A stretch of DNA of 64,000 bases, from NCBI GenBank assembly GCA_012719035.1, contig JAAYBD010000009.1:246-64245 (forward strand), written 5' to 3'. A model generated the notes under the pieces. That model was given only the letters and a program-made list of their open reading frames with translations, was not told the origin of the DNA and searched no databases. Numbering within the stretch: the first letter of the stretch is position 1; each line of letters starts with the position of its first letter. The position numbers and the translations under genes are program-made. Shown in pieces: positions 1,003 through 27,890 of the stretch. The DNA is from Clostridiales bacterium. Lineage in GTDB: Bacteria; Bacillota; Clostridia; Oscillospirales; Oscillospiraceae.

Positions 1003-1140
1003 GGCAATCTCCTTCATTTATGACTTATCTCCATCATTTTAGCACTAAATGAAGGAGATTTCAACGGGCATGATGGAGATATAATTCCATCTGCAATGAT
1101 TATTATGCCATGATTGCGCACATAATAATCAATTTGTTAT

Positions 1141-1163
1141 GTAAAAGCAGCCCGAAGGCTGCC
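1141..1163 (-). terminator. rho-independent terminator after the DUF4366 gene
   Basis: GCAGCC-cgaa-GGCTGC hairpin (1147-1162), followed on the minus strand by TTTTAC. Confidence 0.45.
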
Positions 1164-1184
1164 CTGGCATCTGCCTGTTAAATA

Positions 1185-2264: not shown

Positions 2265-2508
2265 AATGATTTTCCTCCTCGTTCATTGAATTGATTGTTT
2301 CAGGCTTCGGCACAGTATCTCCGACCATGCGAAGCAGTTCTGCAAGCTGGGCAGGAGTGAGATTGGCGGCATGAACCATATCATGGATCTCCGTATTTTC
2401 CTCCTCACGATACCTGCGTTCCAGCTCTTTGACCTTTTTATCCCATTCATCACGTTTTTTACGGGCTTTGGCAAGGTCAGCGCCAATCTTATCAAGTTTT
2501 ACGCCCAT
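2248..2508 (-). CDS. DUF4315 family protein (ICE)
   Basis: 86-aa coiled-coil protein starting [25 protein letters not shown]. Occupies the family-typical position between the NlpC/P60 and DUF4366 genes. Confidence 0.7.
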
Positions 2509-2523
2509 AAGATGCTCCTTTCC

Positions 2524-4284: not shown

Positions 4285-4287
4285 GCG

Positions 4288-6720: not shown

Positions 6721-7069
6721 TTACCTCCTTCTCAAGTTGGTGCTGCCGCTTAAGGGCGACGTAGTAATTGTTCGTCTGATAAGGGCGAACCTTAGGTCGA
6801 GTAAATTTCGACTGGATGAAGTGTCTTGCAATGACTTCCAGCGGCTGACCGTCCTTTTCGTACATAGCCAAAAAGAACAGAGGGAGCATAATGATAATCA
6901 TGCCAAGTGCCGCCAGACTGACGTTGCCGGTACGTTTGAGCAAAAAGAAAGACGGCACTCCGATCAGTGCCGCCGCACCAAAGCATACCAGCTGTCGCTT
7001 TGTCAGATTAAAAAACACTTTGGATTTGACCCTCGTAAGATCACGAGGGACGGGAATATACGCTGCCAA
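6635..7069 (-). CDS. PrgI family mobile-element membrane protein
   Basis: 144 aa, two TM segments, YEKDGQPLE...RPYQTNNYY signature. Overlaps the annotated virB4 start, so one of the two starts may be shorter. Confidence 0.7.
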   Translation of the reverse strand: MAAYIPVPRDLTRVKSKVFFNLTKRQLVCFGAAALIGVPSFFLLKRTGNVSLAALGMIIIMLPLFFLAMYEKDGQPLEVIARHFIQSKFTRPKVRPYQTNNYYVALKRQHQLEKEVNAIVFQEETAGKKRKNARKSHKNTAEAD

Positions 7070-7091
7070 TCCAAGTCCTCCTTTCTATTGG

Positions 7092-7958
7092 TTAGTGGGC
7101 GCTGAATACGCTCTTGGCAAGTGAACCAGTCTTGAACAGCGTGAAGCACAGAAGAACTGTGTAGCCCATAACACCCCAAATGGATGCGATAATGTCATCA
7201 GAGAACGCAACAGACTGAATCAAAACTGCATATATGCCAACGCAGATCATGATTAAAAAGCCCTGGAAACCTAAAGCAAACAGGGAACGCAGATAGTTTT
7301 GCCCCACCTGGCTCTGTTCTCTGTTGCCGAATGTCGAAAATGGGATCGGCGCAAGGCTGGTCATCAGGTAGATTTCTACCATACGCCCATACACAATAAC
7401 GAAAATAACGACAGAGAGGGCAGACATTGTAATCTGCACAATGAGGGATTGCAGGAACAAGCCAAGCAAAGGCCCAAGCTCCATAGCATTTAGCGTGTCC
7501 TCCATGGCTTCCAAGGCTGAAGCATCTACCGCCGTGTCTGCCGATATGATGCCCGCACTGGCATTGACGACGTGCTGCGCCACATCGAAAACTGCCATTG
7601 TAATATTGAAGGTGTTGGTAATGAGCATGACCGCAACAAAAGTCTTGAAGACCCATTTGAAAAAGATCCAGGTCTCAAAATTTGCCAGATTGTTGTGGTC
7701 AATAATCATCTGGATAAGCTCGTAGCAGGCAATGAATGTTAAAATCAAGCCTGCGATTGGGATAATCACGTTTTCGGAGATGTTTCTCACCATAGCAAAG
7801 ACCCCGGGCGAAAAATTCGCCGGGGTCATGCCAACATCGGATGCAATCTCGCCAACCTGGTTATTGACGGAATCAAACAGCCCCGACAGATTACCCATAA
7901 TGGCATCAACGAGCATTTCTTTGAGCCATTCCGTTATTTTTTGGATAATGCTGTCCAA
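7092..7958 (-). CDS. VirB6/TrbL-like polytopic T4SS membrane protein (CD0415/CD1112 family)
   Basis: 288 aa with multiple TM helices. Sits between the Maff2 and PrgI genes as in related ICEs. Confidence 0.75.
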   Translation of the reverse strand: MDSIIQKITEWLKEMLVDAIMGNLSGLFDSVNNQVGEIASDVGMTPANFSPGVFAMVRNISENVIIPIAGLILTFIACYELIQMIIDHNNLANFETWIFFKWVFKTFVAVMLITNTFNITMAVFDVAQHVVNASAGIISADTAVDASALEAMEDTLNAMELGPLLGLFLQSLIVQITMSALSVVIFVIVYGRMVEIYLMTSLAPIPFSTFGNREQSQVGQNYLRSLFALGFQGFLIMICVGIYAVLIQSVAFSDDIIASIWGVMGYTVLLCFTLFKTGSLAKSVFSAH

Positions 7959-7979
7959 AGGCGACTACCTCCTTATTGA

Positions 7980-8195
7980 TTAACCGAACAGACCGGAAAG
8001 CAAAGGTACAAGAGTGATGCCAATGAGAGCGACACCGCCGCCAGCCATCAGCTGCTTCATGCCCTGGGATTTTGCGCCAGGGTTATCATTGCCGTAACCT
8101 TCCAGAAGGTTGATTGCACCCCAAATGCCAAGACCAGCACCAAGAGCAACGACGAGGGTCTGCAGAACAGTTACTGCGCTGTTAAAGAATTCCAT
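7980..8195 (-). CDS. Maff2 family mobile-element protein (intact copy)
   Basis: 71 aa: MEFFNSAVTVLQTLVVALGAGLGIWGAINLLEGYGNDNPGAKSQGMKQLMAGGGVALIGITLVPLLSGLFG. RBS AGGAGG upstream. Confidence 0.85.
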   Translation of the reverse strand: MEFFNSAVTVLQTLVVALGAGLGIWGAINLLEGYGNDNPGAKSQGMKQLMAGGGVALIGITLVPLLSGLFG

Positions 8196-8221
8196 AAAAT
8201 TTTTCCTCCTTAGATTTTAAT

Positions 8222-8254
8222 TGAAAAGGGTGGACAGCCGAAGCCATCCACCCC
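8222..8254 (-). terminator. hairpin plus T-run between the Maff2 fragment and the intact Maff2 gene
   Basis: GGGTGGA...TCCACCC stem (8228-8253), followed on the minus strand by CTTTTC. Confidence 0.4.
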
Positions 8255-8282
8255 TGTTTTGAGTAATTTCTATTTTGCCAGA

Positions 8283-8452
8283 TTAGCCAAACAGACCGGA
8301 AAGCAGCGGCACAAGGGTGATACCAATGAGAGCGACACCGCCGCCAGCCATCAGCTGCTTCATGCCCTGGGATTTTGCGCCAGGGTTATCATTGCCGTAA
8401 CCTTCCAGAAGGTTGATTGCACCCCAGATGCCAAGACCAGCACCAAGAGCAA
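8283..8452 (-). pseudogene. Maff2 3' fragment (second copy, lacks its own 5' half)
   Basis: Encodes ALGAGLGIWGAINLLEGYGNDNPGAKSQGMKQLMAGGGVALIGITLVPLLSGLFG, identical to the C-terminal part of the 7980-8195 product. Nucleotide identity with that copy ends at 8452/8453. Confidence 0.8.
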
Positions 8453-8632
8453 AGCATTGCCGCATTCGATAACGATACTGCCTTTTGGGTCAGTCACAAC
8501 ATAGCTGGAATGCATTTGAAGCAGGTTTGGTTTCAGCCAAAAGCGGGTCTTACCGGAACCACTGCCGCCGACAATTAGGACATTCTTGTTTCTGGCATTG
8601 GCAGGGTTCTTTGGACGATTTGACATCATCAA
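8453..8632 (-). pseudogene. VirD4-like type IV coupling protein, internal about 60-codon fragment only
   Basis: MMSNRPKNPANARNKNVLIVGGSGSGKTRFWLKPNLLQMHSSYVVTDPKGSIVIECG contains the Walker A region of CD1115-type T4CPs. The N-terminal TM region and about 450 C-terminal residues are missing. The frame runs on out of frame into the Maff2 fragment (ORF 8360-8632). Confidence 0.8.
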
Positions 8633-9015
8633 TAATTCTGTTTTACCGTATCCAAATACTGACGGAGGACTGTCTCACGGCTCATGGCGTTCACAAGGGA
8701 AACTTCCAAACCAGACAGCTCGATATTTGCAGGCATTAAATCTACGCCTTCAGGATGATGGAGGATACCTTCTCCTGGTTCAATGGGTTGTTCCATCATC
8801 ACCTTACCCATGAGATCTGACAAGGTAATAGGCAAATTATCAGGCACGGGATGTCCAAGGCTTATCGTAAGAGATGCCTGAGGATCTGCATCCACAACCA
8901 GAACTTTTTTACCCTCCATTGCCAGACCGACACCCAAGTTCTCCGTGGTTGTCGTCTTGCCGGTGCCACCTTTCTGATTAACTACTGCCATGACGGTAGC
9001 TTTCTTTGCCATCAC
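8629..9015 (-). pseudogene. ParA/Soj-type ATPase truncated at codon 128
   Basis: Deviant Walker A VVNQKGGTGKTTTT is present. The ORF stops after ...LRQYLDTVKQNY, exactly where the Walker B (hhhDCPP) block should follow in full-length (about 260 aa) ParA proteins. Confidence 0.75.
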
Positions 9016-9052
9016 AAATCACCTCAACTTTCATCTTGATCTTCAAATTGCA

Positions 9053-9967
9053 TCACTCCTTCCCATGAAAAAAGCCCCCTGACATATCGTGTCGTACTTT
9101 GGAATCGTAGTAACAACCGATAGTTAGAGGGGCATTGTAAATTGCGGCAAGTAGGTATTGCCGCATATTACGGACATTTGTTGTGTTTTCCTTCAGGCAA
9201 TCAAGAACAAAACTGATATGCTCTGAATTCAACTTCATAAACCGACTTTTTACTACCTCTGCTGGCTTATCATCGCTTGCAATGCGTATCATCTTGCGAT
9301 TGGTACACACGGTATCGACAATCAGCTCAAGAATTTCCTCCAGTATATCAATATCATAAGGATGCCTTGTTTTGAGAATTTCATACTCAAGCTGCTCCAC
9401 AAAATACAAGCGATATTGCTCTCTCACAGTCATCCCTTCGATTTCCCTTCCCTGAAAATCGGAAGAAAGGAAAGGATCAGTATCACTATAATCAGTATAA
9501 ATAGTATCAGTATTATTACCTTGTGCTTTCGACAATTCCAGAGTTGTGTTTTTGACAGTTCCAGAATTGTCATTTTGACAATTCAAGAATTGTCCTTCCA
9601 CATGGTTATCCACCGAGTTATCCACAAAGTTTTTTACATAGATCAGATTGGGTTTTCCAAGACCTTGCCTTTTGCGTTCAATTAGACCGCATTTTCGCTC
9701 CAATTCATCCAGAAGTTTTACCGCTTTCTTCTCAGCACATCCAATGGAGCCTTTTATTTCATCAATCGTAAATATGATGTAGACTCGGCCTGCTTCATCC
9801 ATCCAGCCGTTTTTAGCTGACAGATTCATGCGGTCAAGTAAGATGCCATACAGCAGCTTAGCGTCAGTCGAAATATTCCAGAAACGTTCGTCAGTAAAGA
9901 GAACCTTTGGCACTCGGTAAAACGAGAACATTTCTGCCTGCTGACCGTAGAAATAATCAAAGCCCAC
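9053..9967 (-). CDS. Replication initiator protein A (RepA_N N-terminal domain, DUF6017-like C-terminus)
   Basis: FYRVPKVLFTDERFWNISTDAKLLYGILLDRMNLSAKNGWMDEAGRVYIIFTIDEI is the RepA_N signature of Firmicute ICEs and plasmids. Confidence 0.8.
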   Translation of the reverse strand: MGFDYFYGQQAEMFSFYRVPKVLFTDERFWNISTDAKLLYGILLDRMNLSAKNGWMDEAGRVYIIFTIDEIKGSIGCAEKKAVKLLDELERKCGLIERKRQGLGKPNLIYVKNFVDNSVDNHVEGQFLNCQNDNSGTVKNTTLELSKAQGNNTDTIYTDYSDTDPFLSSDFQGREIEGMTVREQYRLYFVEQLEYEILKTRHPYDIDILEEILELIVDTVCTNRKMIRIASDDKPAEVVKSRFMKLNSEHISFVLDCLKENTTNVRNMRQYLLAAIYNAPLTIGCYYDSKVRHDMSGGFFHGKE

Positions 9968-10202
9968 TCAATCTCACCACCTCTCCAGTTGGGAATGGAT
10001 TTTCTTTTAAGGGAACACCTCGAATCGTACTCCCTGATTTGTGGTAGTGACATTGCGGATAGTAGCATGAACGATATTTCCATGAAGGCTGATGAAATTC
10101 ACACTCCCGGCATGAACGAGGAGACACCCGCTTACTGGAGCGAAAGCCAGGAACTTTCCGCATTGTTTTGTCAATGCGATCAAATTCTTTATTCTCAGTC
10201 AT
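9957..10202 (-). CDS. Hypothetical 81-aa Cys/His-rich protein (ICE)
   Basis: ATG at 10202 lies 2 nt after the upstream stop (TGA-T-ATG). Sequence MTENKEFDRIDKTMRK...CRECEFHQPSWKYRSCYYPQCHYHK. The 3' end overlaps the rep start. I recognise no family. Confidence 0.4.
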   Translation of the reverse strand: MTENKEFDRIDKTMRKVPGFRSSKRVSPRSCRECEFHQPSWKYRSCYYPQCHYHKSGSTIRGVPLKENPFPTGEVVRLSGL

Positions 10203-10203
10203 A

Positions 10204-10443
10204 TCAGTGGATGCCGAGTTCTCGCATAATCTTTTTAGTACACCAGCCAATGCATGGATGATCTCGTCCATAAGGACATCCATCACATTCAGTCTTGACC
10301 TTTTTAGGTACACTAATCAGGTAATAGCAATTCTCTTTGCCCAGACTACAGCCCTTTCTCGTACCTTTCCAAAAATAGCATTTACTGCAGTCGCTTGGCT
10401 TGTCTGCGGCATAAGTTACCTCCTGCACATCCTCACCTCCCAT
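10204..10443 (-). CDS. Cysteine-rich VLP domain protein (ICE)
   Basis: 79 aa with CSKCYFW...CSLGKENCYYL...CDGCPYGRDHPCIGWC, the spacing typical of Cys_rich_VLP proteins in this ICE family. Confidence 0.6.
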   Translation of the reverse strand: MGGEDVQEVTYAADKPSDCSKCYFWKGTRKGCSLGKENCYYLISVPKKVKTECDGCPYGRDHPCIGWCTKKIMRELGIH

Positions 10444-10578
10444 CGTTTGTATTTTCCTGATAACTCAGGAATAAAAAAAGAGCGCCTATCCAGCCCCGGA
10501 GTAGGGGCGAATAAACGCTCTACGTAATCTGTATTCAGTTGTTCGGCGCATCTCTCTGAAAGAGATACGCCATGATTT

Positions 10579-10803
10579 TTATGCCATCCTCACCCTTAAT
10601 CCTGAAATGGAAGAAGTGGGGATACCAACGAGATACCAGCCTTTGTCGCCCCAGTCATACTCAATCCGGGTAGGCTTCCAACGGTTACCTACGAATACAT
10701 CCATACAAGTTCCGCAATGGAGACCACCGTAGTATTCTTCCAAACCAAACCGCACATCCATGCGCTCTGATTCAGTATCATAAATCAATACACCTTGCTT
10801 CAT
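10579..10803 (-). CDS. DUF5348 domain protein (ICE)
   Basis: MKQGVLIYDTESERMDVRFGLEEYYGGLHCGTCMDVFVGNRWKPTRIEY. I chose the internal ATG at 10803 because AGGAGG lies 8 nt upstream; the ORF track starts at 10875. Confidence 0.65.
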   Translation of the reverse strand: MKQGVLIYDTESERMDVRFGLEEYYGGLHCGTCMDVFVGNRWKPTRIEYDWGDKGWYLVGIPTSSISGLRVRMA

Positions 10804-10985
10804 AAATCCAGACCTCCTATCATTTGGATCATAGCCATGTTGCCGGACTTTTATACAGTCAACCAGCAGATGCAAACTACTTCTTCCTACATGTTTCTCA
10901 ATGGGTTTTGGTCTGAATTCTTTTGGACAAAATCAGCGAAAAACCCCGTGTTTTCAAGGCCTCCAACCTTTTGTCCTATTATAAC

Positions 10986-11024
10986 TCAATAGTCTATTCG
11001 ACGTACTATTCCTGTTGCTTTCAT
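10986..11024 (-). pseudogene. spoVT: 12-codon remnant of a SpoVT/AbrB-family gene start (MKATGIVRRIDY*)
   Basis: GGGAGG RBS, then ATG AAA GCA ACA GGA ATA GTA CGT CGA ATA GAC TAT TGA. The first 11 residues equal the B. subtilis SpoVT N-terminus MKATGIVRRID as I recall it. The conserved DLGRVVIPKEIRR continuation is absent. Confidence 0.55.
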
Positions 11025-11477
11025 AAAAACCTCCCATGCGACTGATGCGCAAAATTTGATGTTTTCCGGCGGTTTAGAAGCTTTCACTTATTTGTCTCAT
11101 CTGAATTGGGGGAAGACAGAGTATAAACCATATGAGTGAAAGAGACGCCGATAAATTTAAAATAGAGTTTTGAACAAATTCTCAGCAAGCCTATTGTTTG
11201 TAAAATGCTGGCGCATTATTCTCTTTTTCTACAAAATATGTTTTAAGCACGAAAGGAGGCAGACGGGCAGATACAGAAATTTATTTAAAAATAAAGGGTG
11301 CTTTGCTTGTTTGTTTTCTGGAAAACGGTAAGAAAAAATCATATAAATCGAATGGATTCAACAAAACGAATACAAAATCTGCAGATTATGAAAATGTCCG
11401 ATATTTATTGCGCTAAATAAGATATTATGATAACATATCACTTTAGATTAGCGTGTTTCCAAAAACTGTGAGCCTTT

Positions 11478-14400
11478 ATGAGCCGCAGTTTAATTCTCCA
11501 AGGGAGGGATTTTTTGGAGAGCGTGTACAGAAAAAACGGAAAGAGACTTACGGCAGTCATTTTAGTTATTGTCTGCCTTTTATCTGTTGCCGCCGGTTGC
11601 ACTCAGAAACATCCGTCATATATACCAGAGGCAAGCCGGCAAGGATACGGAATATCCGCAGCTGTTCTTTATAACGGAAAATCAAATGACGGGGCATGGA
11701 ACGATACACTTGATTATCTTGAGCAGTCAACTATTATCAATCTCACCGCCTGCGCTTTGGATATATCCGAGGCTTATGACCTGAGTAACTACAGCGTTTT
11801 ATATCTTGATAAAAGCATTATTGAAGCGGACGATTTGGCGGATATTTGCGCGTCTGTTGAGAGCTTTACGGAAAACGGCGGTTCAGTTTTTCTTGATAAT
11901 GCATTTTATGACGTATTCGACAAAGAATTCATAGGCGTTAGTAAATTTGTCAAAGTAACAGAATGTCCCGCTGATGTTTCTTTGCCCGAAGCGGGCGAAG
12001 ATATCCGGGAACTGCAGGAGATCATTGCGGATTTTATAAGTCTGTATACGTCTTATGCCGATTATTCAGCGCTGGCGGATTATGATTACGGTTATGCTGC
12101 TGTATGCGATACCGCTGTACCGGTAGTTACGTGGAAAGACCACGCAATTTATACTCTGAACAAATACGGCAAGGGAAATGTCTTTTTTACAAATCCCCTG
12201 CTGCCCAATGTCTTTTCGCTCAGCGGATTTTCAATGCAATACAGAAATGAGACTCAGAAAGCTTTTTCAAATACAACAGCCGGCTGCAATCAGCTGTTGT
12301 TAAACGCTTTTGCGGGGTATGTCTCAAAGCAGACCTACGGATATTATATCGGACGGGTCTTCGGAAGCTTCGGCAGCACAGATATGGCGTGGGAGCTTCA
12401 TTATGAGGAGATAAACGGCATCAAGAACAACTCGCTGAAGATTTTCAGCGAACTGTGCAGGGAATATCTTCAGGTTCCGTCATTTTCGCTCATACGCAAT
12501 TCATATTGGTGGTTCAGGCGCGCTGAAACCATCTCATACTATCTCAATAACAGCGATGACGGGAAGCTCGATTTTTCACTTGATTTTAACGAAAATGCCT
12601 ATTCATCGGGAACGCATATAGTAAGCGGCAATGAATGGCTGAATCTTGGAAGCATAGAAAATGCCGGAAGTTATTTTGCTGACTATCCGCAGTACACATA
12701 TAGGGCATATCCGGAGCTGTGTGATTATGATTCCGACGGATTAACTGATATATTCTGCGGAAGTGCTGACGGCAAATTGTACTATTATAAAGGCAAGAGC
12801 TTTGATGGACGGTTCTGCGTATCCGATGCGGCTGTTCTTACCGATGGGAGCGGAAAAGAACTTACTGTCCCGGGCTATTCTTCGCCGAATCTTATCGATA
12901 TTAACTGCGACGGCTATCCCGATATCATTTCCGGAAGCTCTGACGGCAGCATATACTGGTTTTCGGGAAACGGAACTTTGGCATTTGAACCGCAGGGTGT
13001 GCTGATAGACACAGATATTTTAGGGCAGAGTCTGCCGTCCGCCGGCGATATAAATAATGACGGTATAGCCGATATCGCGGTCGGCTCGAACGAGGGCATA
13101 CTCATCATATATTACGGAACAAAAAACTCTGACGGCAGTGTTTTCTATAGTGACAGCAACATGGGCAGCCTGTCTCTTGAATGCGCAAATGCCGGTCTTG
13201 GGACATGGCTTGCACCTGAGATTTCGGATTACAGCAAAGACGGCAGGAACGAGCTTTTAATCGGAACTTTTGACGGATATGTTGCGCTTTTCTCGTGGAT
13301 GAGTTCAGGCTCGCTCGAATTTGGCGGCTTTATTACTACAGGCGAAAAAAATTATAAGGGCAATAACAATATTAAAACCGGCAATAACTGCGTGCCCGTT
13401 CTTTACGATATAAATTCTGATGGTTCGCTCGATCTTGTCTGCGGCAGCCTTGAATACGGGCTTGCTTATCCGATAGATTCGGAATACTTCCCCTATGCCG
13501 ATGAACTGCGGGAGCAGATGGATTATGCGGCTGAGCATTATTATTACATGGGTGCTCATTTTTACACCAATTCATATTCATCCGAGGAAAGAGAAGCATA
13601 TGAGCTGAAAGCTCAAATGGATTCCTTTAAGAAGTATGGTTTGGAGACTTCCGGAATAGGCGTTAATCAGCACACATGGTATACAAGCACTCTCAGCCCT
13701 GCCCAGTCACTTCTGAGCGCCTATGATGCGGGGCTATTGTGGAACTCAGGCTTTGCTCCTGCCAGAAGCGCTTTCAATGCGCCGCAGGTTGCAGCCGAAA
13801 ATGTAATCTCGCTCCCGTTCTACCTTAAAAGCGGCGGAGAAAATACCATTTTGCTGCAAAACTGCTCCGTACTGCCGTATAAAGGCAGTGACTGGACTGA
13901 TATTTCAGCGAAATATGGCATTCCTGTCTGTGTATTCTATCACTGCGACTTTGTTTATAGATCGGATGAGGAAGCGATTCCCTATCTAAAACAACTGTCT
14001 GATTTCTGGTGGGAAAATGGCTATAATTTCGTAAAAGAAGATCAGATGATGACGGCAACGGCCGCTTCATACAATATGAACGTTACTGTAGAGGGGGTCA
14101 ATTTTGCAGTCGATTCCCCGATTGATATTTTAGTAAAGGCAAATGAAATTTCCAGCGATTTTCCGCTTTATAATAAGCTGTATCAGAATTCAGCCGGTGC
14201 AAAAATCGTTTTCAGCGAGAATATAGATGCCCGAAATATTGCGACGGATGCCGATGTATGGAAACTTGAAGGGAATACTCTTTATATCTCTTTAAACAAG
14301 CCTGTTTCCGTTAAAGATACCTTGGCAGAAGCAGAAAACAACATTCACATAGAACGGGTAAATATTGCGGCTGACATCAAAACAAATCCAGACGGCGCTG

Positions 14401-14555
14401 TGATAAGCTTTCTCGATAATGGAATGATGCAGGCGGTGGTTTCAGGACGTGCCGAAACTGCATCTGAAGGCTGGACCGTAAGTGAACGTGACGGGAAAAC
14501 AATATTTACAAAATACGGAGCTGCCGATGTACTGGATATTTCTTACAGCTCATGA
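11478..14555 (+). CDS. Large secreted lipoprotein with five FG-GAP/VCBS-type repeats
   Basis: Lipobox LSVAAG|C. Five DxD/NxDGxxD repeats: DYDSDGLTD, DINCDGYPD, DINNDGIAD, DYSKDGRNE, DINSDGSLD (nt about 12720-13460). A more likely start is TTG at 11514, 6 nt after GGGAGG, giving MESVYRKNGKRLTAVILVIVCLLSVAAGC. Confidence 0.75.
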   Translation: MSRSLILQGRDFLESVYRKNGKRLTAVILVIVCLLSVAAGCTQKHPSYIPEASRQGYGISAAVLYNGKSNDGAWNDTLDYLEQSTIINLTACALDISEAYDLSNYSVLYLDKSIIEADDLADICASVESFTENGGSVFLDNAFYDVFDKEFIGVSKFVKVTECPADVSLPEAGEDIRELQEIIADFISLYTSYADYSALADYDYGYAAVCDTAVPVVTWKDHAIYTLNKYGKGNVFFTNPLLPNVFSLSGFSMQYRNETQKAFSNTTAGCNQLLLNAFAGYVSKQTYGYYIGRVFGSFGSTDMAWELHYEEINGIKNNSLKIFSELCREYLQVPSFSLIRNSYWWFRRAETISYYLNNSDDGKLDFSLDFNENAYSSGTHIVSGNEWLNLGSIENAGSYFADYPQYTYRAYPELCDYDSDGLTDIFCGSADGKLYYYKGKSFDGRFCVSDAAVLTDGSGKELTVPGYSSPNLIDINCDGYPDIISGSSDGSIYWFSGNGTLAFEPQGVLIDTDILGQSLPSAGDINNDGIADIAVGSNEGILIIYYGTKNSDGSVFYSDSNMGSLSLECANAGLGTWLAPEISDYSKDGRNELLIGTFDGYVALFSWMSSGSLEFGGFITTGEKNYKGNNNIKTGNNCVPVLYDINSDGSLDLVCGSLEYGLAYPIDSEYFPYADELREQMDYAAEHYYYMGAHFYTNSYSSEEREAYELKAQMDSFKKYGLETSGIGVNQHTWYTSTLSPAQSLLSAYDAGLLWNSGFAPARSAFNAPQVAAENVISLPFYLKSGGENTILLQNCSVLPYKGSDWTDISAKYGIPVCVFYHCDFVYRSDEEAIPYLKQLSDFWWENGYNFVKEDQMMTATAASYNMNVTVEGVNFAVDSPIDILVKANEISSDFPLYNKLYQNSAGAKIVFSENIDARNIATDADVWKLEGNTLYISLNKPVSVKDTLAEAENNIHIERVNIAADIKTNPDGAVISFLDNGMMQAVVSGRAETASEGWTVSERDGKTIFTKYGAADVLDISYSS

Positions 14556-14572
14556 CAGGAGGTCCTTGAAAA

Positions 14573-16081
14573 ATGAACTCTGCCGTTTGTCTGCTTGAGC
14601 GGGCTTCGGAAAAATATGCATCAAGAACTGCCGTGCAGGATGAAGATATTAGCCTTACTTATGCGGAATATAGACGTATATCCAGAGCCATCGGCACAGC
14701 ATTCCTGCGTATGGACGGAGCCAGACCTGTAATTGTGTATCTGCCAAAGAGCACACATGCGCTTACCTGCTTCATGGGTGCCATGTACAGCGGAGCGCCA
14801 TACATTCCCGTTGATGCGCACATACCGATGCGAAGACTTGAAAAAATAATAGCAGGCCTTGCACCATGCTATATCGTGACAGATGAAAATTTAATAGCAA
14901 ACCTGCGGGAATGTGATACCTCGGAGGCGAGGGTGTGCTTATACAGCGAGCTGTCATCGGCAGAGGCAGACGATGCGCTGGTTGACAAAGCTCTCAGCCG
15001 CGTTATCGACACCGACCCGATATATGTAATGTTTACTTCCGGTTCTACAGGTTCGCCAAAGGGCGTGACTATACCCCACCGCGGAATTCTGGACTATGCA
15101 GAATGGGTTGTTTCCACCTTTGAGTTTAATGAAAATACAGTTATGGCAAACCAAGCGCCGTTTTATTTTGATAATTCGACCTTTGATATCTACGGCTGTA
15201 TGCGGTGCGGCGGAAAGCTTGTGCTCACGCCTGAAACGCTCTTCATGTTTCCCCTCAAATTGCCCCAGTTTCTTGATGAGCATGATATAACTTCGATATT
15301 CTGGGTGCCGACAGTAATGATAAATATTGCAAATTCCGGTGTTTTGTCGGACTACACTCTGCCGAAGCTGAAAAATGTCGCTTTCTGCGGGGAGGTTATG
15401 CCTAACAAGCAGCTGAATATTTGGAGGAAGGCGCTGCCCCATTGCAGTTATGCCAATCTATATGGGCCGACTGAAATCACAGATGTGTGCTGCTATTATA
15501 AGGTAGATAAGGAATTTGGAGATGCCGACCCGCTGCCGATAGGAAAAGCGTGTGAAAACATGCGGGTTCTTATCCTTACGGAAGACGGGCGCGAAGCTCC
15601 AGTCAATGAAGCGGGAGAGCTCTGCGTTATCGGTACGGGAGTAGCTCTTGGATACTGGAATGCTCCGGAGATTTCCGCAAAAGCTTTTGTTCAAAATCCT
15701 CTCAATCCTTTTTACAGCGAAAGAATGTACCGTACCGGTGATCTTGCATATTTCAATGAAGACGGTCTTATCATGTTCATCGGAAGAAAAGACAATCAGA
15801 TAAAACATAAGGGAAACAGAATCGAATTGGGTGAAATCGAAACGGCGGCAATGTGTGTTGAGGGAGTTGAAAACGCCTGTGCGATTTTTGACTCAAACAA
15901 GCAGGAAATAGTTCTGTTCGTTGAAACTAAAGGAACTCTGCCCCTGCGCAGATTCAATGTCGAACTAAAAAAGTACATTCCACAGTATATGCTGCCCTCT
16001 ATGCTTATACCGATGGAAAAACTGCCTCATACGGCAAATGATAAAATAGACAGGGTCACGCTGCGTAAGACCCTTGAATAA
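14573..16081 (+). CDS. dltA: DltA-like adenylation enzyme (D-alanine--D-alanyl carrier protein ligase family)
   Basis: 502 aa with AMP-binding motifs MFTSGSTGSPKGV, YGPTE, YRTGD and GRKDNQIKHKGNRIELGEIE. AGGAGG RBS. A carrier protein gene follows immediately. Substrate not verifiable from sequence. Confidence 0.8.
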   Translation: MNSAVCLLERASEKYASRTAVQDEDISLTYAEYRRISRAIGTAFLRMDGARPVIVYLPKSTHALTCFMGAMYSGAPYIPVDAHIPMRRLEKIIAGLAPCYIVTDENLIANLRECDTSEARVCLYSELSSAEADDALVDKALSRVIDTDPIYVMFTSGSTGSPKGVTIPHRGILDYAEWVVSTFEFNENTVMANQAPFYFDNSTFDIYGCMRCGGKLVLTPETLFMFPLKLPQFLDEHDITSIFWVPTVMINIANSGVLSDYTLPKLKNVAFCGEVMPNKQLNIWRKALPHCSYANLYGPTEITDVCCYYKVDKEFGDADPLPIGKACENMRVLILTEDGREAPVNEAGELCVIGTGVALGYWNAPEISAKAFVQNPLNPFYSERMYRTGDLAYFNEDGLIMFIGRKDNQIKHKGNRIELGEIETAAMCVEGVENACAIFDSNKQEIVLFVETKGTLPLRRFNVELKKYIPQYMLPSMLIPMEKLPHTANDKIDRVTLRKTLE

Positions 16082-16097
16082 TTGGCGGGAGATTATT

Positions 16098-16349
16098 ATG
16101 AAGCCTCAGGAAATAATTGAAATACTGGACAAGTTTATAAAGGAGCATTTCGAGCTGGATGGCGATCCGGATTATTCGACGGACGTAAATCTTTTTGACT
16201 ATGGTTTTGTGGATTCGCTTGGAGCGGTCGAAATCATCATGTTTGTCGAGGAGCGATTCGGCTGCTCGATTACACAGCGTGATATATCCAAATATCCCAT
16301 GAATTCCGTCGAGGAAATTGCCGAGGTAGTGGCTTCTAAGCTTCAATAG
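16098..16349 (+). CDS. dltC: DltC-like acyl/aminoacyl carrier protein
   Basis: 83 aa with phosphopantetheine site FVDSLGAVEIIMFVEE. ATG at 16098 chosen (GGGAG RBS). Confidence 0.8.
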   Translation: MKPQEIIEILDKFIKEHFELDGDPDYSTDVNLFDYGFVDSLGAVEIIMFVEERFGCSITQRDISKYPMNSVEEIAEVVASKLQ

Positions 16350-16366
16350 ACGAAAGGAGCCATTAT

Positions 16367-17515
16367 ATGTGGTTTCTCCAGACAGATATTTTGATACGGA
16401 TGCTGATTGCCTGCGTGATTGCCGCAACTGCGCTTGTAATCGCGCAAAAGTTTATGAAGCATTCCCATGTAATGAACGGTCTGATAATTCTGGATTTGCT
16501 TATGATACTTTATGTGTCAAAAAGACTGTTCGTGTTCTATATCGGGTACGTGCTTGTAACATACGCGTTTGTTCTGTTCATCAAGAAAAAGAGAAAATTC
16601 CGCAAGTTCTGGTTTGTGATGTGCTGCCTTGGCTGTACAGTGCCGTTTTTCTATACCAGAGCAACTGAGTTTTTCTCATTTCTGCCGTATGGACTTGCGA
16701 TGGTAGGTATCTCGTATAATATGCTAAAAGCAATAGATGCGATATACTATACTTACTATACTGATGAGCATATCCCGTTTCTCACATACGCGAATTATAT
16801 TCTGTTTTTTCCGGTCATCACTGCGGGGCCGATTTTCCGCTATCGTGACTTTAATAAAACTTTTCACAATCCCGAACCCCTTACGGCGGAAAAGGCGGAA
16901 TATTTTGTCAAGCGCTTTATCAGGGGAATGTTTAAAAAGGTCGTTGTTCTTGCCCTTGTCATAAATCTCATGAACTATCTGGTGACCATGAACGGGCATT
17001 GGTATCTGAGTATTTTAATTACGGTTCTCAGCTATTTGACCCTGTTTCTTGATATGTCGGGATATGCCGATATCGCGATTTCCATAGGCGGTATTATCGG
17101 TCTCAAAGTGCCGGAAAACTTTAAAGAGCCGCTCAAGGCACCGTCTTTTACTCAGTTCTGGCGCAACTGGCATATAACTCTCAGCGACTGGATCAGAGAG
17201 CATATATTCGTTGTTGTGAGCGGTAAGAAGCTAAACCGCATGCAAGGTGCGCTTATCGGCTTCCTCACTATGTTTTTTATGTGCTTATGGCACGGGTTTA
17301 CCATTGCGTACGTGATTGATGGCGTGATTTTAGGACTTGTACTTGCGTGTGAAAATCTTTTTGAAATAACTACGGTCAATAAGCGAAAAGTTAAAAAATC
17401 ATATTTTGTTTTCAGATGCTTTGTGACCAACACCATCTTTGCTCTCAACAGCCTGCTGCTTACATTGGGCGGTGCAGAAGCCGTCCGGGTAATAAAAGGC
17501 TTTTTGACATGGTAG
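16367..17515 (+). CDS. dltB: DltB-like MBOAT family membrane O-acyltransferase
   Basis: 382 aa, polytopic. FWRNWHITLSDWIREHIF and LWHG (conserved MBOAT His). Confidence 0.8.
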   Translation: MWFLQTDILIRMLIACVIAATALVIAQKFMKHSHVMNGLIILDLLMILYVSKRLFVFYIGYVLVTYAFVLFIKKKRKFRKFWFVMCCLGCTVPFFYTRATEFFSFLPYGLAMVGISYNMLKAIDAIYYTYYTDEHIPFLTYANYILFFPVITAGPIFRYRDFNKTFHNPEPLTAEKAEYFVKRFIRGMFKKVVVLALVINLMNYLVTMNGHWYLSILITVLSYLTLFLDMSGYADIAISIGGIIGLKVPENFKEPLKAPSFTQFWRNWHITLSDWIREHIFVVVSGKKLNRMQGALIGFLTMFFMCLWHGFTIAYVIDGVILGLVLACENLFEITTVNKRKVKKSYFVFRCFVTNTIFALNSLLLTLGGAEAVRVIKGFLTW

Positions 17516-17525
17516 GGAGGCATCA

Positions 17526-18434
17526 ATGATTACAAAGCTTTTATCTAAAATAAGGCGATATAGATTTATTGCCGCTCTGTTCCTTATTTTTATCGTTATG
17601 GACTGCCTGCTCGGGGTCATGTTTGAAAGCTATACGGTGAAAAGCGGGAACTTCTGGTTAAATGATTATGAAATCACCCGCCGCGATCACCCCGAGGAAA
17701 TATGGGATAAGGTTTTCTACGGGAATTCAGCGGTTATTTCGGGTTACCGAGAGGATTTGAGTACGAGCGGATACACTAATTTCGGCATTGACTATGGCTC
17801 AATGCAAGATATGCTGAAGATTCTTCGCTCGGACAAGGTGAAAATCGGGGAAGAACTTGTAATAGGCATAAATTGGGCGGCTTTGTTCGATAATATGGAA
17901 ACAAATCCAAACTATTATTGGAACAGGGTAACTCTTGAGCCGTATAGCTATTTTCAGCGGGATAGGCTTTATGCGGCGTTTACTGGAAAGCTGAAATCAA
18001 TAGTGACCGGAGAACCATGGGCGGAAGGGCAGTTTGCCTATCAGACTAAGAGCTACTATTATTCAAGCTTGCCTACAGCTCAGTTGTTGGAAAAGGTTGA
18101 TGTCTATCAAGAACGTTACTGGTCGACTGGCGTGGAAGGCTGTAGCAAAAATCTTGAGGCAATAGGAGAAATCGTCGGCTTCTGCAAGGAAAACGATATT
18201 CGGCTGCGCATAGTTTTAATGCCGTGGAATCCGGCAATAGAAAAGACTGATGTCATATCAGAGCTTGATAAGAGCGTGATTGACATATGCAGGGAAAACG
18301 ATATTGAATACCTCGATTTTTCAGATGCTTTTGATGCAGAATGCTTTTATGATTTGGGACATATGAGCTATGAATACGGCTCACATGTTTTTACGGAGGC
18401 GATTGACAAGTGGCTGAATTCAAAAAAAGAATAG
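17526..18434 (+). CDS. DltD-like membrane-anchored SGNH-type acyl transfer protein (short form, 302 aa)
   Basis: N-terminal TM (FIAALFLIFIVMDCLLGV). FYGNSAV (GxS block) and C-terminal DLGHM (DxxH block). Occupies the dltD position in the operon. Confidence 0.55.
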   Translation: MITKLLSKIRRYRFIAALFLIFIVMDCLLGVMFESYTVKSGNFWLNDYEITRRDHPEEIWDKVFYGNSAVISGYREDLSTSGYTNFGIDYGSMQDMLKILRSDKVKIGEELVIGINWAALFDNMETNPNYYWNRVTLEPYSYFQRDRLYAAFTGKLKSIVTGEPWAEGQFAYQTKSYYYSSLPTAQLLEKVDVYQERYWSTGVEGCSKNLEAIGEIVGFCKENDIRLRIVLMPWNPAIEKTDVISELDKSVIDICRENDIEYLDFSDAFDAECFYDLGHMSYEYGSHVFTEAIDKWLNSKKE

Positions 18435-18553
18435 AAGAGTTTTTAAAAACGCCTGCGGGTATCGCTGCGGAAGTTCTTGTATATGCTGTGATGATGATTT
18501 TGGTGTTAATTTTCTTTACCGGAAACGGGCAGTTCATCTACGAGGCATTTTAG
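18410..18553 (+). CDS. dltX: DltX-like 47-aa membrane micro-protein with C-terminal FxYxxF motif (not in ORF track)
   Basis: GTG at 18410, 10 nt after GGAGG. My translation: MAEFKKRIEEFLKTPAGIAAEVLVYAVMMILVLIFFTGNGQFIYEAF. One TM helix and a terminal FIYEAF. The stop codon sits inside the RBS of the next gene. Confidence 0.6.
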   Translation: MAEFKKRIEEFLKTPAGIAAEVLVYAVMMILVLIFFTGNGQFIYEAF

Positions 18554-18564
18554 GAGGCTTTATT

Positions 18565-19032
18565 ATGATAATACGCAAAGCCGAGGAACGGGACATGGAG
18601 AGTCTCCTTGATATGTACGACAAGATGTATGAGATACTGTGCGGAGAATACGGCTATCCGTTTGAGCTTAGCAGGACGGATAACCGCGAGGTTCTTGCCG
18701 TGCAGATGCGCTCAAAGCTGTGCAAGGTGCTTGTTGCCGAGGATAACGGCTCTTTGGTGGGATTTGTTCATACTTCTATTTCTAAGCTTGACCGCAGGTT
18801 TACGTTCAAAGGACAGCGGGTTATAGGCAGGATCGATGATATCTATGTTTCGGGAGAGGCAAGAGGTTCGGGACTTGCACAAGATCTTCTTGAGAAAGCT
18901 GAAGAATGGCTTCGGGAAGAAGGAATAGAAATTGTCGAAAGCTATATTCTTGACCGGAATGAGCGCTCCCTGCGTTTTCACCAAAAAGATGGTTTTCAGA
19001 TCCTGTCCAAGCGCACTTATAAAGTCTTGTGA
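18565..19032 (+). CDS. GNAT family N-acetyltransferase
   Basis: 155 aa with acetyl-CoA binding block IYVSGEARGSGLAQDLLEKAEEW. RBS TTAGGAGG overlaps the upstream stop. Confidence 0.75.
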   Translation: MIIRKAEERDMESLLDMYDKMYEILCGEYGYPFELSRTDNREVLAVQMRSKLCKVLVAEDNGSLVGFVHTSISKLDRRFTFKGQRVIGRIDDIYVSGEARGSGLAQDLLEKAEEWLREEGIEIVESYILDRNERSLRFHQKDGFQILSKRTYKVL

Positions 19033-19067
19033 AAATAATTATATGTATTTCAGCAGCAGAAATTTGA

Positions 19068-19102
19068 ATATCCCCAAAGCATTATGCTTTGGGGATATTT
19101 TC
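19068..19102 (+). terminator. rho-independent terminator closing the dlt-like/GNAT operon
   Basis: CCCCAAAGCA-tta-TGCTTTGGGG followed by ATATTTTC. Confidence 0.7.
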
Positions 19103-19132
19103 AATAAATATTAAAAAGCCATATGCAAATAT

Positions 19133-19176
19133 AAAAAGGATATGAAAAACCGAAAAGCGATTTTCCATATCCTTAA
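19133..19176 (-). terminator. terminator after hypA
   Basis: GGATATGGAAAA...TTTTCATATCC hairpin read on the minus strand, followed by TTTTTATATTT. Confidence 0.55.
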
Positions 19177-19202
19177 AATAGTATAAATTTCAAAAGGCTA
19201 TG

Positions 19203-19550
19203 CTAAATAATACCCACGCTTATGATTTGAAAACCGTATCCCGATATCAAACGAAGAGCCTGACTGCCGCAATGTTCGCAGACATATTCGGGACCAAGCT
19301 CGTTGTAAACGGTTTTTCCTCCGCATTTGCGGCAAGTAAAAACCGCCGGATCGGGTTCAATCGCAATCTCTGCGTCTTTAGCTATGGTGTCCTTTGAGAT
19401 TACGTCAAAAAACGACTGCACATAAGTCGGGATAACGCCGGACATCAGACCGACCTTTAGAGTGATTTTCGTCACTTTTTTACCGCCGTGCTCCTCGGCA
19501 ACTCGGAGAGCAGTGTCCAGCACGTCGGTCATTATGCCAAGCTCATGCAT
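19203..19550 (-). CDS. hypA: HypA-family metallochaperone (hydrogenase nickel incorporation protein-like)
   Basis: MHELGIMTDVLD N-terminus (MHE metal site) and the zinc motif CRKCGG...CEHCGS. Confidence 0.75.
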   Translation of the reverse strand: MHELGIMTDVLDTALRVAEEHGGKKVTKITLKVGLMSGVIPTYVQSFFDVISKDTIAKDAEIAIEPDPAVFTCRKCGGKTVYNELGPEYVCEHCGSQALRLISGYGFQIISVGII

Positions 19551-19553
19551 AGT

Positions 19554-20531
19554 TTATGCGTTCTGCTGAGCCTTGAGTGCCTTAATGTCCAGAGGAGCAA
19601 GGACATCGGGATCAACCAGCTCAAGAGTGATAGCATCCTTCTTGCAGGCAAGGAGACAAGCTTCGCAGCCGCGGCAGAGATCCTCGTTTACCTGAATAAG
19701 GTTGTCTTTATCTCTGTAGATTGCGAGGAAGTTACACTTCTTTTCGCACATACCGCAGTTTACGCATTTTTCTTTGTCGATCTTTGCGATGTAGCCTGAG
19801 CCCGCCATCATGGGAGCGGTGAGATAGTTCTGGGAAAGCAGGGCGGTGCAGCAGCAGGGACAGCAGTTGCAGATGCTGTACAGACGGCCTGCGGCAACAT
19901 CCTTAAAGAACGCTGCATGTACGTTTCCTCTTTCGTGGCACTCGCGGAGAACCTGAAGAGCCTCTTCCTGGGTGACAAGACGGCCGTTTAAGTATCTGTC
20001 GCGGTCAAGGCACCACGACACCCAAGGCTCACCAATAACGATGCAGACGTCGCGGGGCTCACAGCCTTTTTCGCCTCTGACGTTGCGGCATACGCAGTCG
20101 ATTACGGCGATGCGGTCCGGAGCCTCGATGATGGCGTTGCGGGCGATTTCATAGGGCATAATTGTCTTGGGCAGCTCGCCGAGATTGAGGTCCTCAGTGA
20201 GAGTAACGACCTGCTCTGCGTCCTCAAGACGGAGAACTTTAGCATGGTATGTATTCGTCATAAGTGAACCGACACCTCTGTTGCACTCGTTAACGCCGGT
20301 TTTTACAAGCTCTGCAACGATATCGAACTCAATGCCCTCGGGCTTTTTGAGATCGTCAGGCTCGGGTAGATAATTGTTGAAAGATTCTCTCATGTAGTAA
20401 ACATAGAGAGGGATATATCCGAAATAAAGCTGTGCGTGCATGAGGTTTGCAAAGCCCTCATGGTTGCGGGGGAAAGCCTTGGCGAGGGCGCGCTGCGATT
20501 TTTTTCTGACTTCGGGATCGTTGTTGTACAT
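19554..20531 (-). CDS. Cys-rich 4Fe-4S dicluster domain protein, function unknown
   Basis: C-terminal CVNCGMCEKKC and CRGCEACLLAC ferredoxin motifs, plus an unusual CNCCPCCC cluster and VIDCVCRN. AAGGAG RBS. Confidence 0.6.
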   Translation of the reverse strand: MYNNDPEVRKKSQRALAKAFPRNHEGFANLMHAQLYFGYIPLYVYYMRESFNNYLPEPDDLKKPEGIEFDIVAELVKTGVNECNRGVGSLMTNTYHAKVLRLEDAEQVVTLTEDLNLGELPKTIMPYEIARNAIIEAPDRIAVIDCVCRNVRGEKGCEPRDVCIVIGEPWVSWCLDRDRYLNGRLVTQEEALQVLRECHERGNVHAAFFKDVAAGRLYSICNCCPCCCTALLSQNYLTAPMMAGSGYIAKIDKEKCVNCGMCEKKCNFLAIYRDKDNLIQVNEDLCRGCEACLLACKKDAITLELVDPDVLAPLDIKALKAQQNA

Positions 20532-27639: not shown

Positions 27640-27890
27640 GTCAAACGCGTTGATGGGGACAGGAAAAAGCCTTAGCAGATTCAAGAGAGCTGTCGTCTGG
27701 TGAAAGACAGTATCTGCCGCTGATTTCATATCACCCCTGAGCGGTATGCTGAACTTTTAGTAAGCATTTCCGGGTCTTCCCGTTACAGAAGCGGACGCTT
27801 GCCGACGTCTATGAGTGGCCCTAAAAATGGGCAACAAGAGTGGTACCACGGATATTTACCTCCGTCTCTTATTGGGAGACGGAGGTTTTT
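27640..27890 (+). promoter_or_regulatory. T-box leader (predicted Ile specifier AUC) with intrinsic terminator
   Basis: AGAGAG (27683-27688). GGTGAAA distal loop. ATC-A at 27730-27733 just before the closing CCCC stem. T-box motif AAGAGTGGTACCACGG (27835-27850). Terminator CCTCCGTCTC-ttattg-GGAGACGGAGG-TTTTT (27859-27890). A weak TTGTTA/TACAAT promoter lies at 27604-27630. Confidence 0.8.

Follow-up and report, generated by a model that had tools for sequence, protein, structure and literature searches.

The Dlt pathway, which D-alanylates teichoic acids in Firmicutes and is the closest described relative of the locus reported here, combines a stand-alone adenylation enzyme (DltA), a small carrier protein (DltC), an MBOAT without a fused shuttle (DltB), an FxYxxF microprotein (DltX) and a membrane-anchored SGNH protein with Ser/Asp/His (DltD), and the FxYxxF of DltX is an acyl-shuttle motif whose tyrosine carries D-alanine (PMC12148441). 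A carrier protein and a DltX-like microprotein are both missing from the MBOAT/SGNH pathways outside Dlt (PMC12148441). In a 64,000-nucleotide (nt) stretch of DNA from a Clostridiales bacterium of the Oscillospiraceae (assembly GCA_012719035.1, contig JAAYBD010000009.1, positions 246 to 64,245; hereafter the window), we examined a cassette of seven genes, g1 to g7 (Table 1), in which an adenylation enzyme (g2, A), a carrier protein (g3, C), an MBOAT (g4, B), a short SGNH protein (g5, D') and a DltX-like microprotein (g6, X) stand between an FG-GAP lipoprotein (g1) and a GNAT (g7). Because it has both a carrier and a DltX-like microprotein, the cassette should represent either a deeply divergent Dlt system or a second system of that type. 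With good confidence, we read it as a Dlt-type, carrier-protein-dependent MBOAT/SGNH acyl relay that is not a canonical D-alanylation system. A search of the literature found no description of the cassette.

The likeness to Dlt extends to every component listed above, whereas the differences lie in gene order (X-A-B-C-D in Dlt, A-C-B-D'-X in the cassette), in a D' that is about 100 amino acids (aa) shorter than DltD and has DUF1574 proteins as its sequence relatives, and in the addition of an FG-GAP lipoprotein of about 1000 aa, frequently a GNAT, and often a second adenylation enzyme. PatA/PatB, which modify peptidoglycan, AlgI/AlgJ/AlgX, which modify alginate, and the DHHW-family O-acetyltransferases of secondary cell-wall polymers share with the cassette an MBOAT, an extracytoplasmic SGNH protein and the tyrosine of an FxYxxF shuttle (PMC12148441, PMC9487903). 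Systems of the PatAB/AlgIJX type, however, use acetyl-CoA as the donor, have neither adenylation enzyme nor carrier, and bear the shuttle fused to the MBOAT's C-terminal end (PMC12148441), in contrast to the predicted carrier-bound donor and the separate microprotein of the cassette. The cassette thus falls outside the acetyl-CoA-dependent MBOAT-SGNH class, as the C-terminus of g4 (...VIKGFLTW) has no FxYxxF and so no fused acyl-shuttle motif, and as the same operon also supplies a carrier and an adenylation enzyme. In Vibrio cholerae, the AlmEFG system has recruited a DltA-like ligase and a DltC-like carrier for the addition of glycine to lipid A; its AlmG is a cytoplasmic-face enzyme of the lysophospholipid-acyltransferase type, and AlmEFG is not known to include an MBOAT, SGNH protein or microprotein. 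As for the lipoprotein, DltE of Lactiplantibacillus plantarum, an extracellular accessory enzyme that is encoded in the dlt operon and interacts with the DltD/DltX end of the pathway (PMC13653941), offers a precedent for an extracytoplasmic protein at the head of a dlt-type operon. In fold and size DltE is unrelated to g1, and we would treat it as a loose precedent, by analogy of role only.

Table 1. Positions of the cassette genes and associated transcription signals in the window
Feature	Position	Strand	Basis
g1, extracytoplasmic FG-GAP/VCBS lipoprotein, about 1013 aa (alternative start ATG 11478, 1025 aa)	11514..14555	+	PF13517, lipobox
g2 (A), stand-alone amino-acid adenylation enzyme, DltA-like / nonribosomal peptide synthetase (NRPS) A-domain-like	14573..16081	+	TIGR01733
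g3 (C), carrier protein, 83 aa, predicted phosphopantetheine-attachment Ser40 in DSL (residues 39-41)	16098..16349	+	PF00550, 34.1 bits
g4 (B), DltB-like MBOAT, 382 aa	16367..17515	+	PF03062, 82 bits (threshold 27)
g5 (D'), 302 aa, N-terminal membrane helix and SGNH-fold domain	17526..18434	+	AlphaFold2 (AF2) model, Foldseek, alignment
g6 (X), 47-aa single-helix microprotein, GTG start, ends in FIYEAF (42-47; Tyr44)	18410..18553	+	motif, PF12459 below threshold
g7, GNAT-family N-acetyltransferase, 155 aa	18565..19032	+	PF00583, 59.9 bits (threshold 20.7)
Two candidate sigma-70-like promoters	11136-11163, 11179-11206	+	9/12 consensus matches each; weak
Intrinsic terminator closing the operon	about 19066-19100	+	16-bp hairpin, -23.6 kcal/mol, followed by UUUUC tail

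All five Dlt roles are filled in the cassette, yet no protein passes the curated thresholds for DltA, DltB, DltC, DltD or DltX. The dlt-like core had been recognized in an earlier sequence-only reading of this DNA from its DSL, WHITLS and LWHG motifs, all of which we found again, and the domain searches agree with it. The g2 protein scored 227.7 bits as an AMP-binding domain and exceeded the cut-off of the model for amino-acid adenylation domains (TIGR01733, 334.5 versus 317.4 bits), whereas it fell far short of both DltA equivalogs (TIGR01734, 300.1 versus 559.85; NF003417, 306.1 versus 476). The carrier g3 likewise stayed below the DltC equivalogs NF003464 and TIGR01688 (33.9 versus a cut-off of 68, and 26 versus 52.35), and g4 scored 154.3 against a cut-off of 375 for the DltB equivalog TIGR04091, DltB being its sole match in NCBIfam. 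The two conserved histidine motifs of g4, WHITLS (residues 268-273) and LWHG (307-310), aligned with the WHxxLS and WHG of DltB structures in the PDB (8jem and 6bug, 7e-20). For g6, the DltX model PF12459 gave 14 bits against a threshold of 25 (E 0.036), in an alignment to the C-terminal end of the model, and only 8 of 59 g6 orthologues matched that model at E <= 1. The C-terminus of g6 is nonetheless conserved across loci as FF(T/S)G(N/H)GxFIYE(A/G)F, with G40, F42, Y44 and E45 invariant in all 59 orthologues, so that g6 has the features expected of a DltX-type shuttle microprotein, namely a predicted single membrane helix and a C-terminal FxYxxF with an invariant tyrosine.

The SGNH protein g5 also departs from its Dlt counterpart. 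Searches of Pfam and NCBIfam returned no match for it, and DltD models (PF04914 and related) gave no hit even at E <= 10. In the AF2 model (pLDDT 93.9), a membrane helix at the N-terminus precedes an SGNH fold, and Foldseek matched this model to GDSL/SGNH hydrolases with a probability of 1.0 and to DltD (7dxm, 6o93, 6pfx) with 0.99-1.0, as well as to PatB, although the likeness to DltD (E of about 4e-4 to 1e-3) was no better than that to generic GDSL hydrolases. GNS at residues 66-68 and DLGH at 276-279, the two blocks reported for a short SGNH partner in the sequence-only reading, are present and supply the predicted catalytic residues Ser68, Asp276 and His279; G66, S68, D276 and H279 are invariant across 33 aligned sequences of the g5 family. 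The modelled fold, the block I Ser and the block V Asp-x-x-His together place g5, as a prediction, in the SGNH hydrolase/transferase superfamily. Its nearest relatives outside its own family are SGNH proteins of DUF1574 (PF07611) and of PF27429 ('LB_356'), the remote sequence relatives being DUF1574 proteins and not DltD; some g5 homologues bear a precomputed weak PF27429 tag, whereas g5 itself reaches no Pfam model searched. Neither function nor structure is known for the DUF1574 family (PMC9487903). Among the representatives of a library clustered at 50% identity, one protein of 717 aa (P0192), a natural fusion, carries a cassette-type MBOAT in its N-terminal ~400 aa and a complete D' at residues 416-707. 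This fusion, and the fact that in most loci the X gene begins within the 3' end of the D' gene, speak for a functional coupling of the relay components.

Focusing on the donor, we read the ten positions of the specificity code from alignments of g2, along with 100 related adenylation enzymes, to PheA (1amu) and Bacillus cereus DltA (3dhv) fragments, both of which had been checked residue by residue against the PDB. The code of g2, DNFFACLDVK, has three of ten positions in common with that of DltA, DLMTLCTVAK: the alpha-amine-binding Asp (D235, in FDNS), the carboxylate-binding Lys (K517, in NDKIDR) and Cys301. The seven positions lining the side chain differ from DltA, and these differences are kept family-wide as DNFF[ASVL]CLDVK; the adenylation enzymes of other clades read DVMYAALDVK, and second adenylation enzymes read DNFFVALVDK or DNFFLAMDIK. 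The pocket is therefore not identical to that of DltA, in line with the suggestion of the sequence-only reading that the donor might differ. Because of its two Phe residues and the conserved Asp at position 330, the pocket suggests a small and possibly polar substrate, and a donor other than D-alanine is plausible but unproven. An assignment of g2 as a fatty-acyl or aryl-acid ligase was rejected on the grounds of the conserved alpha-amine Asp and of the TIGR01733 score above cut-off.

These comparisons bear directly on whether the locus could be an ordinary dlt operon with a shuffled gene order, one that D-alanylates lipoteichoic or wall teichoic acid and in which the FG-GAP and GNAT genes are incidental. 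The nearest named families of g2, g3, g4 and g6 are indeed DltA, DltC, DltB and DltX, pipelines of the Joint Genome Institute (JGI) label g2 as D-alanine--poly(phosphoribitol) ligase, and the Cys retained at code position 301 is the enantiomer-selecting residue of DltA, where it (C269 in B. cereus) contributes to the selection of D- over L-alanine (PMC4176424). Against this stand equivalog scores that are all far below their cut-offs, the family-conserved differences at seven of ten pocket positions, and an SGNH partner outside the DltD family; with the evidence from other genomes given below, we consider an ordinary operon unlikely.

The comparison of g2 with the PDB gave nearly the same score for DltA (3dhv from B. 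cereus, 214.6 bits) and for module 2 of the NRPS LgrA (214.5 bits). This equal similarity to NRPS A domains would fit a small-molecule pathway, in which the adenylation enzyme, carrier and GNAT would produce an N-acetyl-aminoacyl or dipeptidyl thioester for release or export, with the membrane proteins serving export, and so would the presence in many loci of two stand-alone adenylation enzymes for a single carrier, and the co-variation of the GNAT with adenylation-enzyme type described below. We found no condensation, thioesterase or reductase domain in any locus examined, however, and both the SGNH domain and g1 are extracytoplasmic, while the invariant trio of MBOAT, SGNH protein and tyrosine microprotein is the signature of envelope polymer acylation (PMC12148441). 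A small-molecule product is accordingly very improbable, and the envelope relay remains our preferred reading.

Homologues of g5 are few in a collection of 5.8 billion proteins, where they formed 40 clusters, yet a scan of species-representative genomes recovered g5 relatives from at least 129 species, with Clostridia making up nearly all of them. Carriers include Oscillospiraceae, Scatomorpha, Avilachnospira, Ornithomonoglobus, Agathobaculum, Flavonifractor and Lachnospiraceae, together with one Planococcus (L078); among them are the cultured strains Agathobaculum desmolans ATCC 43058 and Planococcus chinensis MB653. The proteins of the window were searched against all open reading frames (ORFs) of 88 loci, and presence was counted in the 41 non-redundant loci with full context, of which 36 have X, 34 have an adjacent FG-GAP gene and 18 have a GNAT; three further look-ups, made from FG-GAP homologues on long contigs, each led to an adjacent cassette (3/3). 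The most frequent architecture was FGGAP-A-C-B-D'-X (11 of 41 loci), followed by A-A-C-B-D'-X-FGGAP (6 loci) and by FGGAP-A-GNAT-C-B-D'-X, FGGAP-A-A-GNAT-C-B-D'-X, FGGAP-A-C-GNAT-B-D'-X and A-A-C-B-D' (5 loci each); the order of the window, with the GNAT last, was found in 1 locus, and three other architectures in one locus each. Chance is far from explaining this arrangement: dozens of species share the gene set, at protein identities that go as low as 35-40%. The conserved unit consists of one or two adenylation enzymes, carrier, MBOAT, SGNH protein and X together with the FG-GAP protein, not of seven genes: of the seven-gene unit proposed in the sequence-only reading, the link to the lipoprotein stood, whereas the GNAT turned out to be accessory.

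These data also weigh further against an ordinary dlt operon. The linkage of the FG-GAP and GNAT genes survives rearrangement of the cassette, many loci have two adenylation enzymes, and the cassette occurs in a Planococcus, a member of the Bacillales. Members of the Bacillales usually have a canonical dlt operon.

The GNAT follows a pattern of its own. It was found in all 17 loci with a single adenylation enzyme bearing Cys301 and in all 8 in which such an enzyme is joined by a second one of the 'VALVD' type, and in none of the 18 loci in which the second enzyme is of the 'LAMDI' type or of the 14 with a single Ala301 enzyme, so that its presence follows the adenylation-pocket type with zero exceptions. 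Because this association holds despite three different positions of the GNAT gene in the cassette, it argues that what the Cys301-type enzyme makes is the substrate of the GNAT; the 'LAMDI' second enzyme may substitute for the GNAT. The simplest reading of this pattern would be acetylation of the amino group. For g7 itself, PDB and NCBIfam searches aimed at its substrate gave only generic, sub-threshold matches, with no specific subfamily reaching its cut-off. The GNAT is a clade-specific accessory, present in under half of the family.

By comparison, the lipoprotein g1 is more regularly associated. The FG-GAP/VCBS models PF13517 and PF01839 passed their thresholds with 69.6 and 48.3 bits over residues 474-555, all 26 homologues aligned keep the lipobox Cys41, and a protein identical to g1 is annotated solely as 'VCBS repeat-containing protein'. 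In the AF2 model (pLDDT 87.8), an N-terminal alpha/beta domain is followed by a central FG-GAP beta-propeller (~385-665) and C-terminal beta-sandwiches, with the propeller modelled as an insertion in a second alpha/beta domain (~289-355 and 670-870). Foldseek matched the central region to the propellers of UmbA4, integrin alpha-V and CRTAC1, and the parts outside the propeller, with lower TM-scores, to PelA (an enzyme modifying the Pel polysaccharide), GH42 and GH164 glycosidases and STM3548. Because ten invariant His, Glu and Asp residues (E306, H308, E310, H380, H694, E706, E709, H732, H822 and D824) lie outside the propeller, the alignment suggests that this part of g1 holds an enzyme active site. 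We propose that g1 may have an extracellular role, in which it binds or processes the acceptor polymer or else moves or edits the transferred group.

Such a lipoprotein might instead be the substrate, with the relay O-aminoacylating g1 itself or other surface proteins such as those with SLH domains. It is the most tightly linked gene outside the relay, it would sit extracytoplasmic and lipid-anchored beside the membrane-bound relay, and the commonest neighbours of the cassette are surface-protein genes (see below). In every bacterial MBOAT-SGNH system characterised so far, however, the modified molecule is a glycopolymer or teichoic acid (PMC12148441, PMC9487903), the abundance of invariant His, Glu and Asp beyond the propeller suggests an enzyme, and g1 is absent from 17% of full-context loci. 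A protein acceptor is thus improbable, and we favour a polymer as the acceptor of the relay.

The flanks of the cassette showed no conserved gene among 120 ORFs from 46 loci, apart from a mild excess of surface-protein genes, with SLH (8) and Cu_amine_oxidN1 (5) the commonest. Some loci lie amid genes for secondary cell-wall polymers, encoding WecG, a pyruvyl transferase and a flippase. On one contig (L004, 15919-20888), an SLH glucosaminidase, a WecG glycosyltransferase, a Wzx/MurJ-type flippase and a polysaccharide pyruvyl transferase are encoded; on another (L005, 9334-11950, - strand), a second MBOAT with an AlgX/DHHW-type SGNH partner lies beside the cassette, along with several SLH proteins. 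An envelope setting is indicated by the SLH and Cu_amine_oxidN1 flanks, by the cell-wall polymer genes in the neighbourhood and by the fold likeness of g1 to PelA, GH42 and GH164.

Taken together, a relay mechanism is likely. The analysis shows a gene set with conserved linkage, the folds of its products, their catalytic residues and motifs, and a pocket unlike that of DltA, and we model the order of transfers by analogy on the established Dlt mechanism. In the cytoplasm, g2 would adenylate a small amino acid, having kept the alpha-amine Asp and the carboxylate Lys in a pocket whose side-chain positions are unlike those of DltA, and would load it as a thioester onto the phosphopantetheine arm of g3. 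In about half of the family, including the window, g7 would probably acetylate the amino group, either of the carrier-bound amino acid or of a free precursor. The MBOAT g4 would then move the acyl group across the membrane to Tyr44 of g6, which would pass it to Ser68 of the membrane-anchored g5, and g5 would esterify an acceptor outside the cytoplasm, for which a secondary cell-wall glycopolymer is the likeliest candidate. The aminoacyl group transferred to that polymer is probably not D-alanine, judging from the pocket. Outside the cell, g1 would act as a dedicated partner that binds or processes the acceptor or moves or edits the transferred group. We infer the acceptor as well as what g1 and g7 do, and regard both proteins as dedicated accessories because of the adjacency of FG-GAP genes (34/41 and 3/3) and because the GNAT tracks the type of adenylation enzyme. 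The main lines of the aminoacyl relay proposed in the sequence-only reading are thus supported, and the refuting test that this reading had set for itself did not overturn it: related loci keep the linkage of lipoprotein and GNAT, and the pocket is not that of DltA.

A fuller picture can be drawn more tentatively. In it, the cassette represents a second, hitherto unrecognised family of carrier- and microprotein-dependent MBOAT-SGNH systems, widespread in gut Clostridia, that might place a non-D-Ala amino acid on a secondary cell-wall polymer. The group would be N-acetylated in loci with a GNAT and perhaps extended or replaced in those with a second adenylation enzyme, and g1 would be a dedicated extracellular enzyme or adaptor for the acceptor. 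It is possible, and we put it forward as such.

Several observations weigh against the relay as described. Co-occurrence counts, whether of loci or of GNAT and pocket types, are not phylogenetically independent. The GNAT is missing from 56% and the FG-GAP gene from 17% of full-context loci, so that neither is essential to the relay. The pocket retains the D-Ala-favouring Cys of DltA and its two Phe residues make it shallow, for which reasons D-alanine or another very small residue may still be the donor. The likeness of g1 outside the propeller to carbohydrate enzymes is at the fold level only (TM-scores 0.11-0.23), and searches of Pfam and the PDB by single sequence and by profile matched the propeller alone. 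Lastly, 15 of 80 loci (L032, L033, L039, L040, L042, L045, L048, L050, L051, L055, L056, L058, L062, L063 and L068) have the order A-A-carrier-MBOAT-D' without a detectable X. This subgroup, from Ornithomonoglobus and others, also has neither the FG-GAP protein nor the GNAT, no FxYxxF was found in the four MBOAT and D' proteins checked, and a DUF805-like membrane protein of about 120 aa follows D' wherever downstream sequence was read. Either these loci encode X elsewhere, or the tyrosine-shuttle step is not universal.

The organization of the locus in the window is that of a single operon, as the sequence-only reading had it. The seven ORFs, all on the + strand from 11514 (alternatively 11478) to 19032, were confirmed as co-directional and tightly packed, with gaps of 17 nt between g1 and g2, 16 nt between g2 and g3, 17 nt between g3 and g4, 10 nt between g4 and g5, and 11 nt between g6 and g7, where the stop codon of g6 sits within the ribosome-binding site TAGGAGG of g7. 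Also as claimed, the order is A-C-B-D'-X, and the DltX-like peptide lies at the 3' end and overlaps the upstream gene, by 25 nt, ending in FIYEAF. Two starts required attention. For g1, TTG 11514 is the most likely start rather than ATG 11478, because it follows a strong GGGAGGG ribosome-binding site at a distance of 5 nt and agrees with the 1013 aa of the public annotation; the lipoprotein and GNAT that were said to bracket the cassette are thus both present, but the former is likelier 1013 than 1025 aa long. For g3, we place the start at ATG 16098, since the resulting 83 aa is the length in most homologues and a ribosome-binding site, GGGAG, precedes it; with the TTG at 16074 that the ORF finder listed, g3 would share 8 nt with g2. 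In the public annotation of this contig, which belongs to a metagenome-assembled genome, g1 is a VCBS repeat protein, g2 an amino acid adenylation domain protein, g3 an acyl carrier protein, g4, g5 and g6 (the same 47-aa product) are each a hypothetical protein, and g7 is a GNAT.

The single strong terminator described earlier at the end of the operon was found as well; its fold has a z of -5.76 relative to shuffled sequences, none of 200 of which fold as well. Beyond it (19136-19174 and 19203-20531, both - strand), a convergent hypA gene and an Fe-S protein gene close with their own 17-bp terminator, and the spacer 19033-19200 therefore carries two back-to-back terminators. At the other end, the total of sigma-70-like sites in the 390-nt AT-rich region upstream of g1 was no higher than in shuffled sequence. 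An Rfam search of 10800-11600 returned no leader or riboswitch, and thus no T-box upstream of g1 to reveal the amino acid. The only T-box in the window is a full-length leader at 27641-27872 (+ strand, 111.8 bits against a gathering score of 93), upstream of a 398-aa ORF (27929-29125) and unrelated to the cassette.

Upstream of the cassette, positions 1-10900 of the window (- strand) hold a block resembling an integrative and conjugative element (ICE), with a VirB4/TraG ATPase, TrbL, NlpC/P60, RepA_N, ParA and DUF5348. Between the two, at 10986-11024 (- strand), an ORF of 12 codons (MKATGIVRRIDY, then stop) behind a GGGAGG ribosome-binding site resembles the N-terminus of an AbrB/SpoVT-type regulator and is cut exactly where the ICE-like block starts. 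Because this N-terminus breaks off at the edge of the block, the sequence suggests that the ICE-like element integrated into an AbrB/SpoVT-type gene. The sequence-only reading had placed the locus directly beside an ICE/spoVT junction; that junction is where it was said to be, and the ICE lies outside the cassette. We rejected the cassette as cargo of the ICE in the window, as the ICE-like genes stop at about 10.9 kb at the truncated spoVT/abrB-like start, which has its promoter side turned toward the cassette. On a 185-kb JGI metagenome contig (L090, 1-19054), a FGGAP-A-GNAT-C-B-D'-X cassette lies between MobC/relaxase genes and a large serine recombinase and may be cargo of a mobilisable element, so that mobility elsewhere is possible. 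This context, the Planococcus copy and the position of the window copy beside an ICE together hint at horizontal spread of the cassette.

If our reading is true, the cassette would be a second MBOAT/SGNH system that depends on a carrier and a tyrosine-shuttle microprotein, differing from Dlt in its pocket, its SGNH family, its modular accessories and its large lipoprotein, and it would show how the Dlt relay can be re-tooled for other donors and acceptors. The carriers are mostly uncultured Clostridia of gut, rumen and poultry whose envelope chemistry is almost unknown, and the cultured carriers make the cassette experimentally tractable. Since the aminoacyl esters of envelope polymers govern how the surface is charged, how well cationic peptides are resisted and how the host recognises the cell, a new chemistry of modification in abundant commensals would bear on the interaction between host and microbe.

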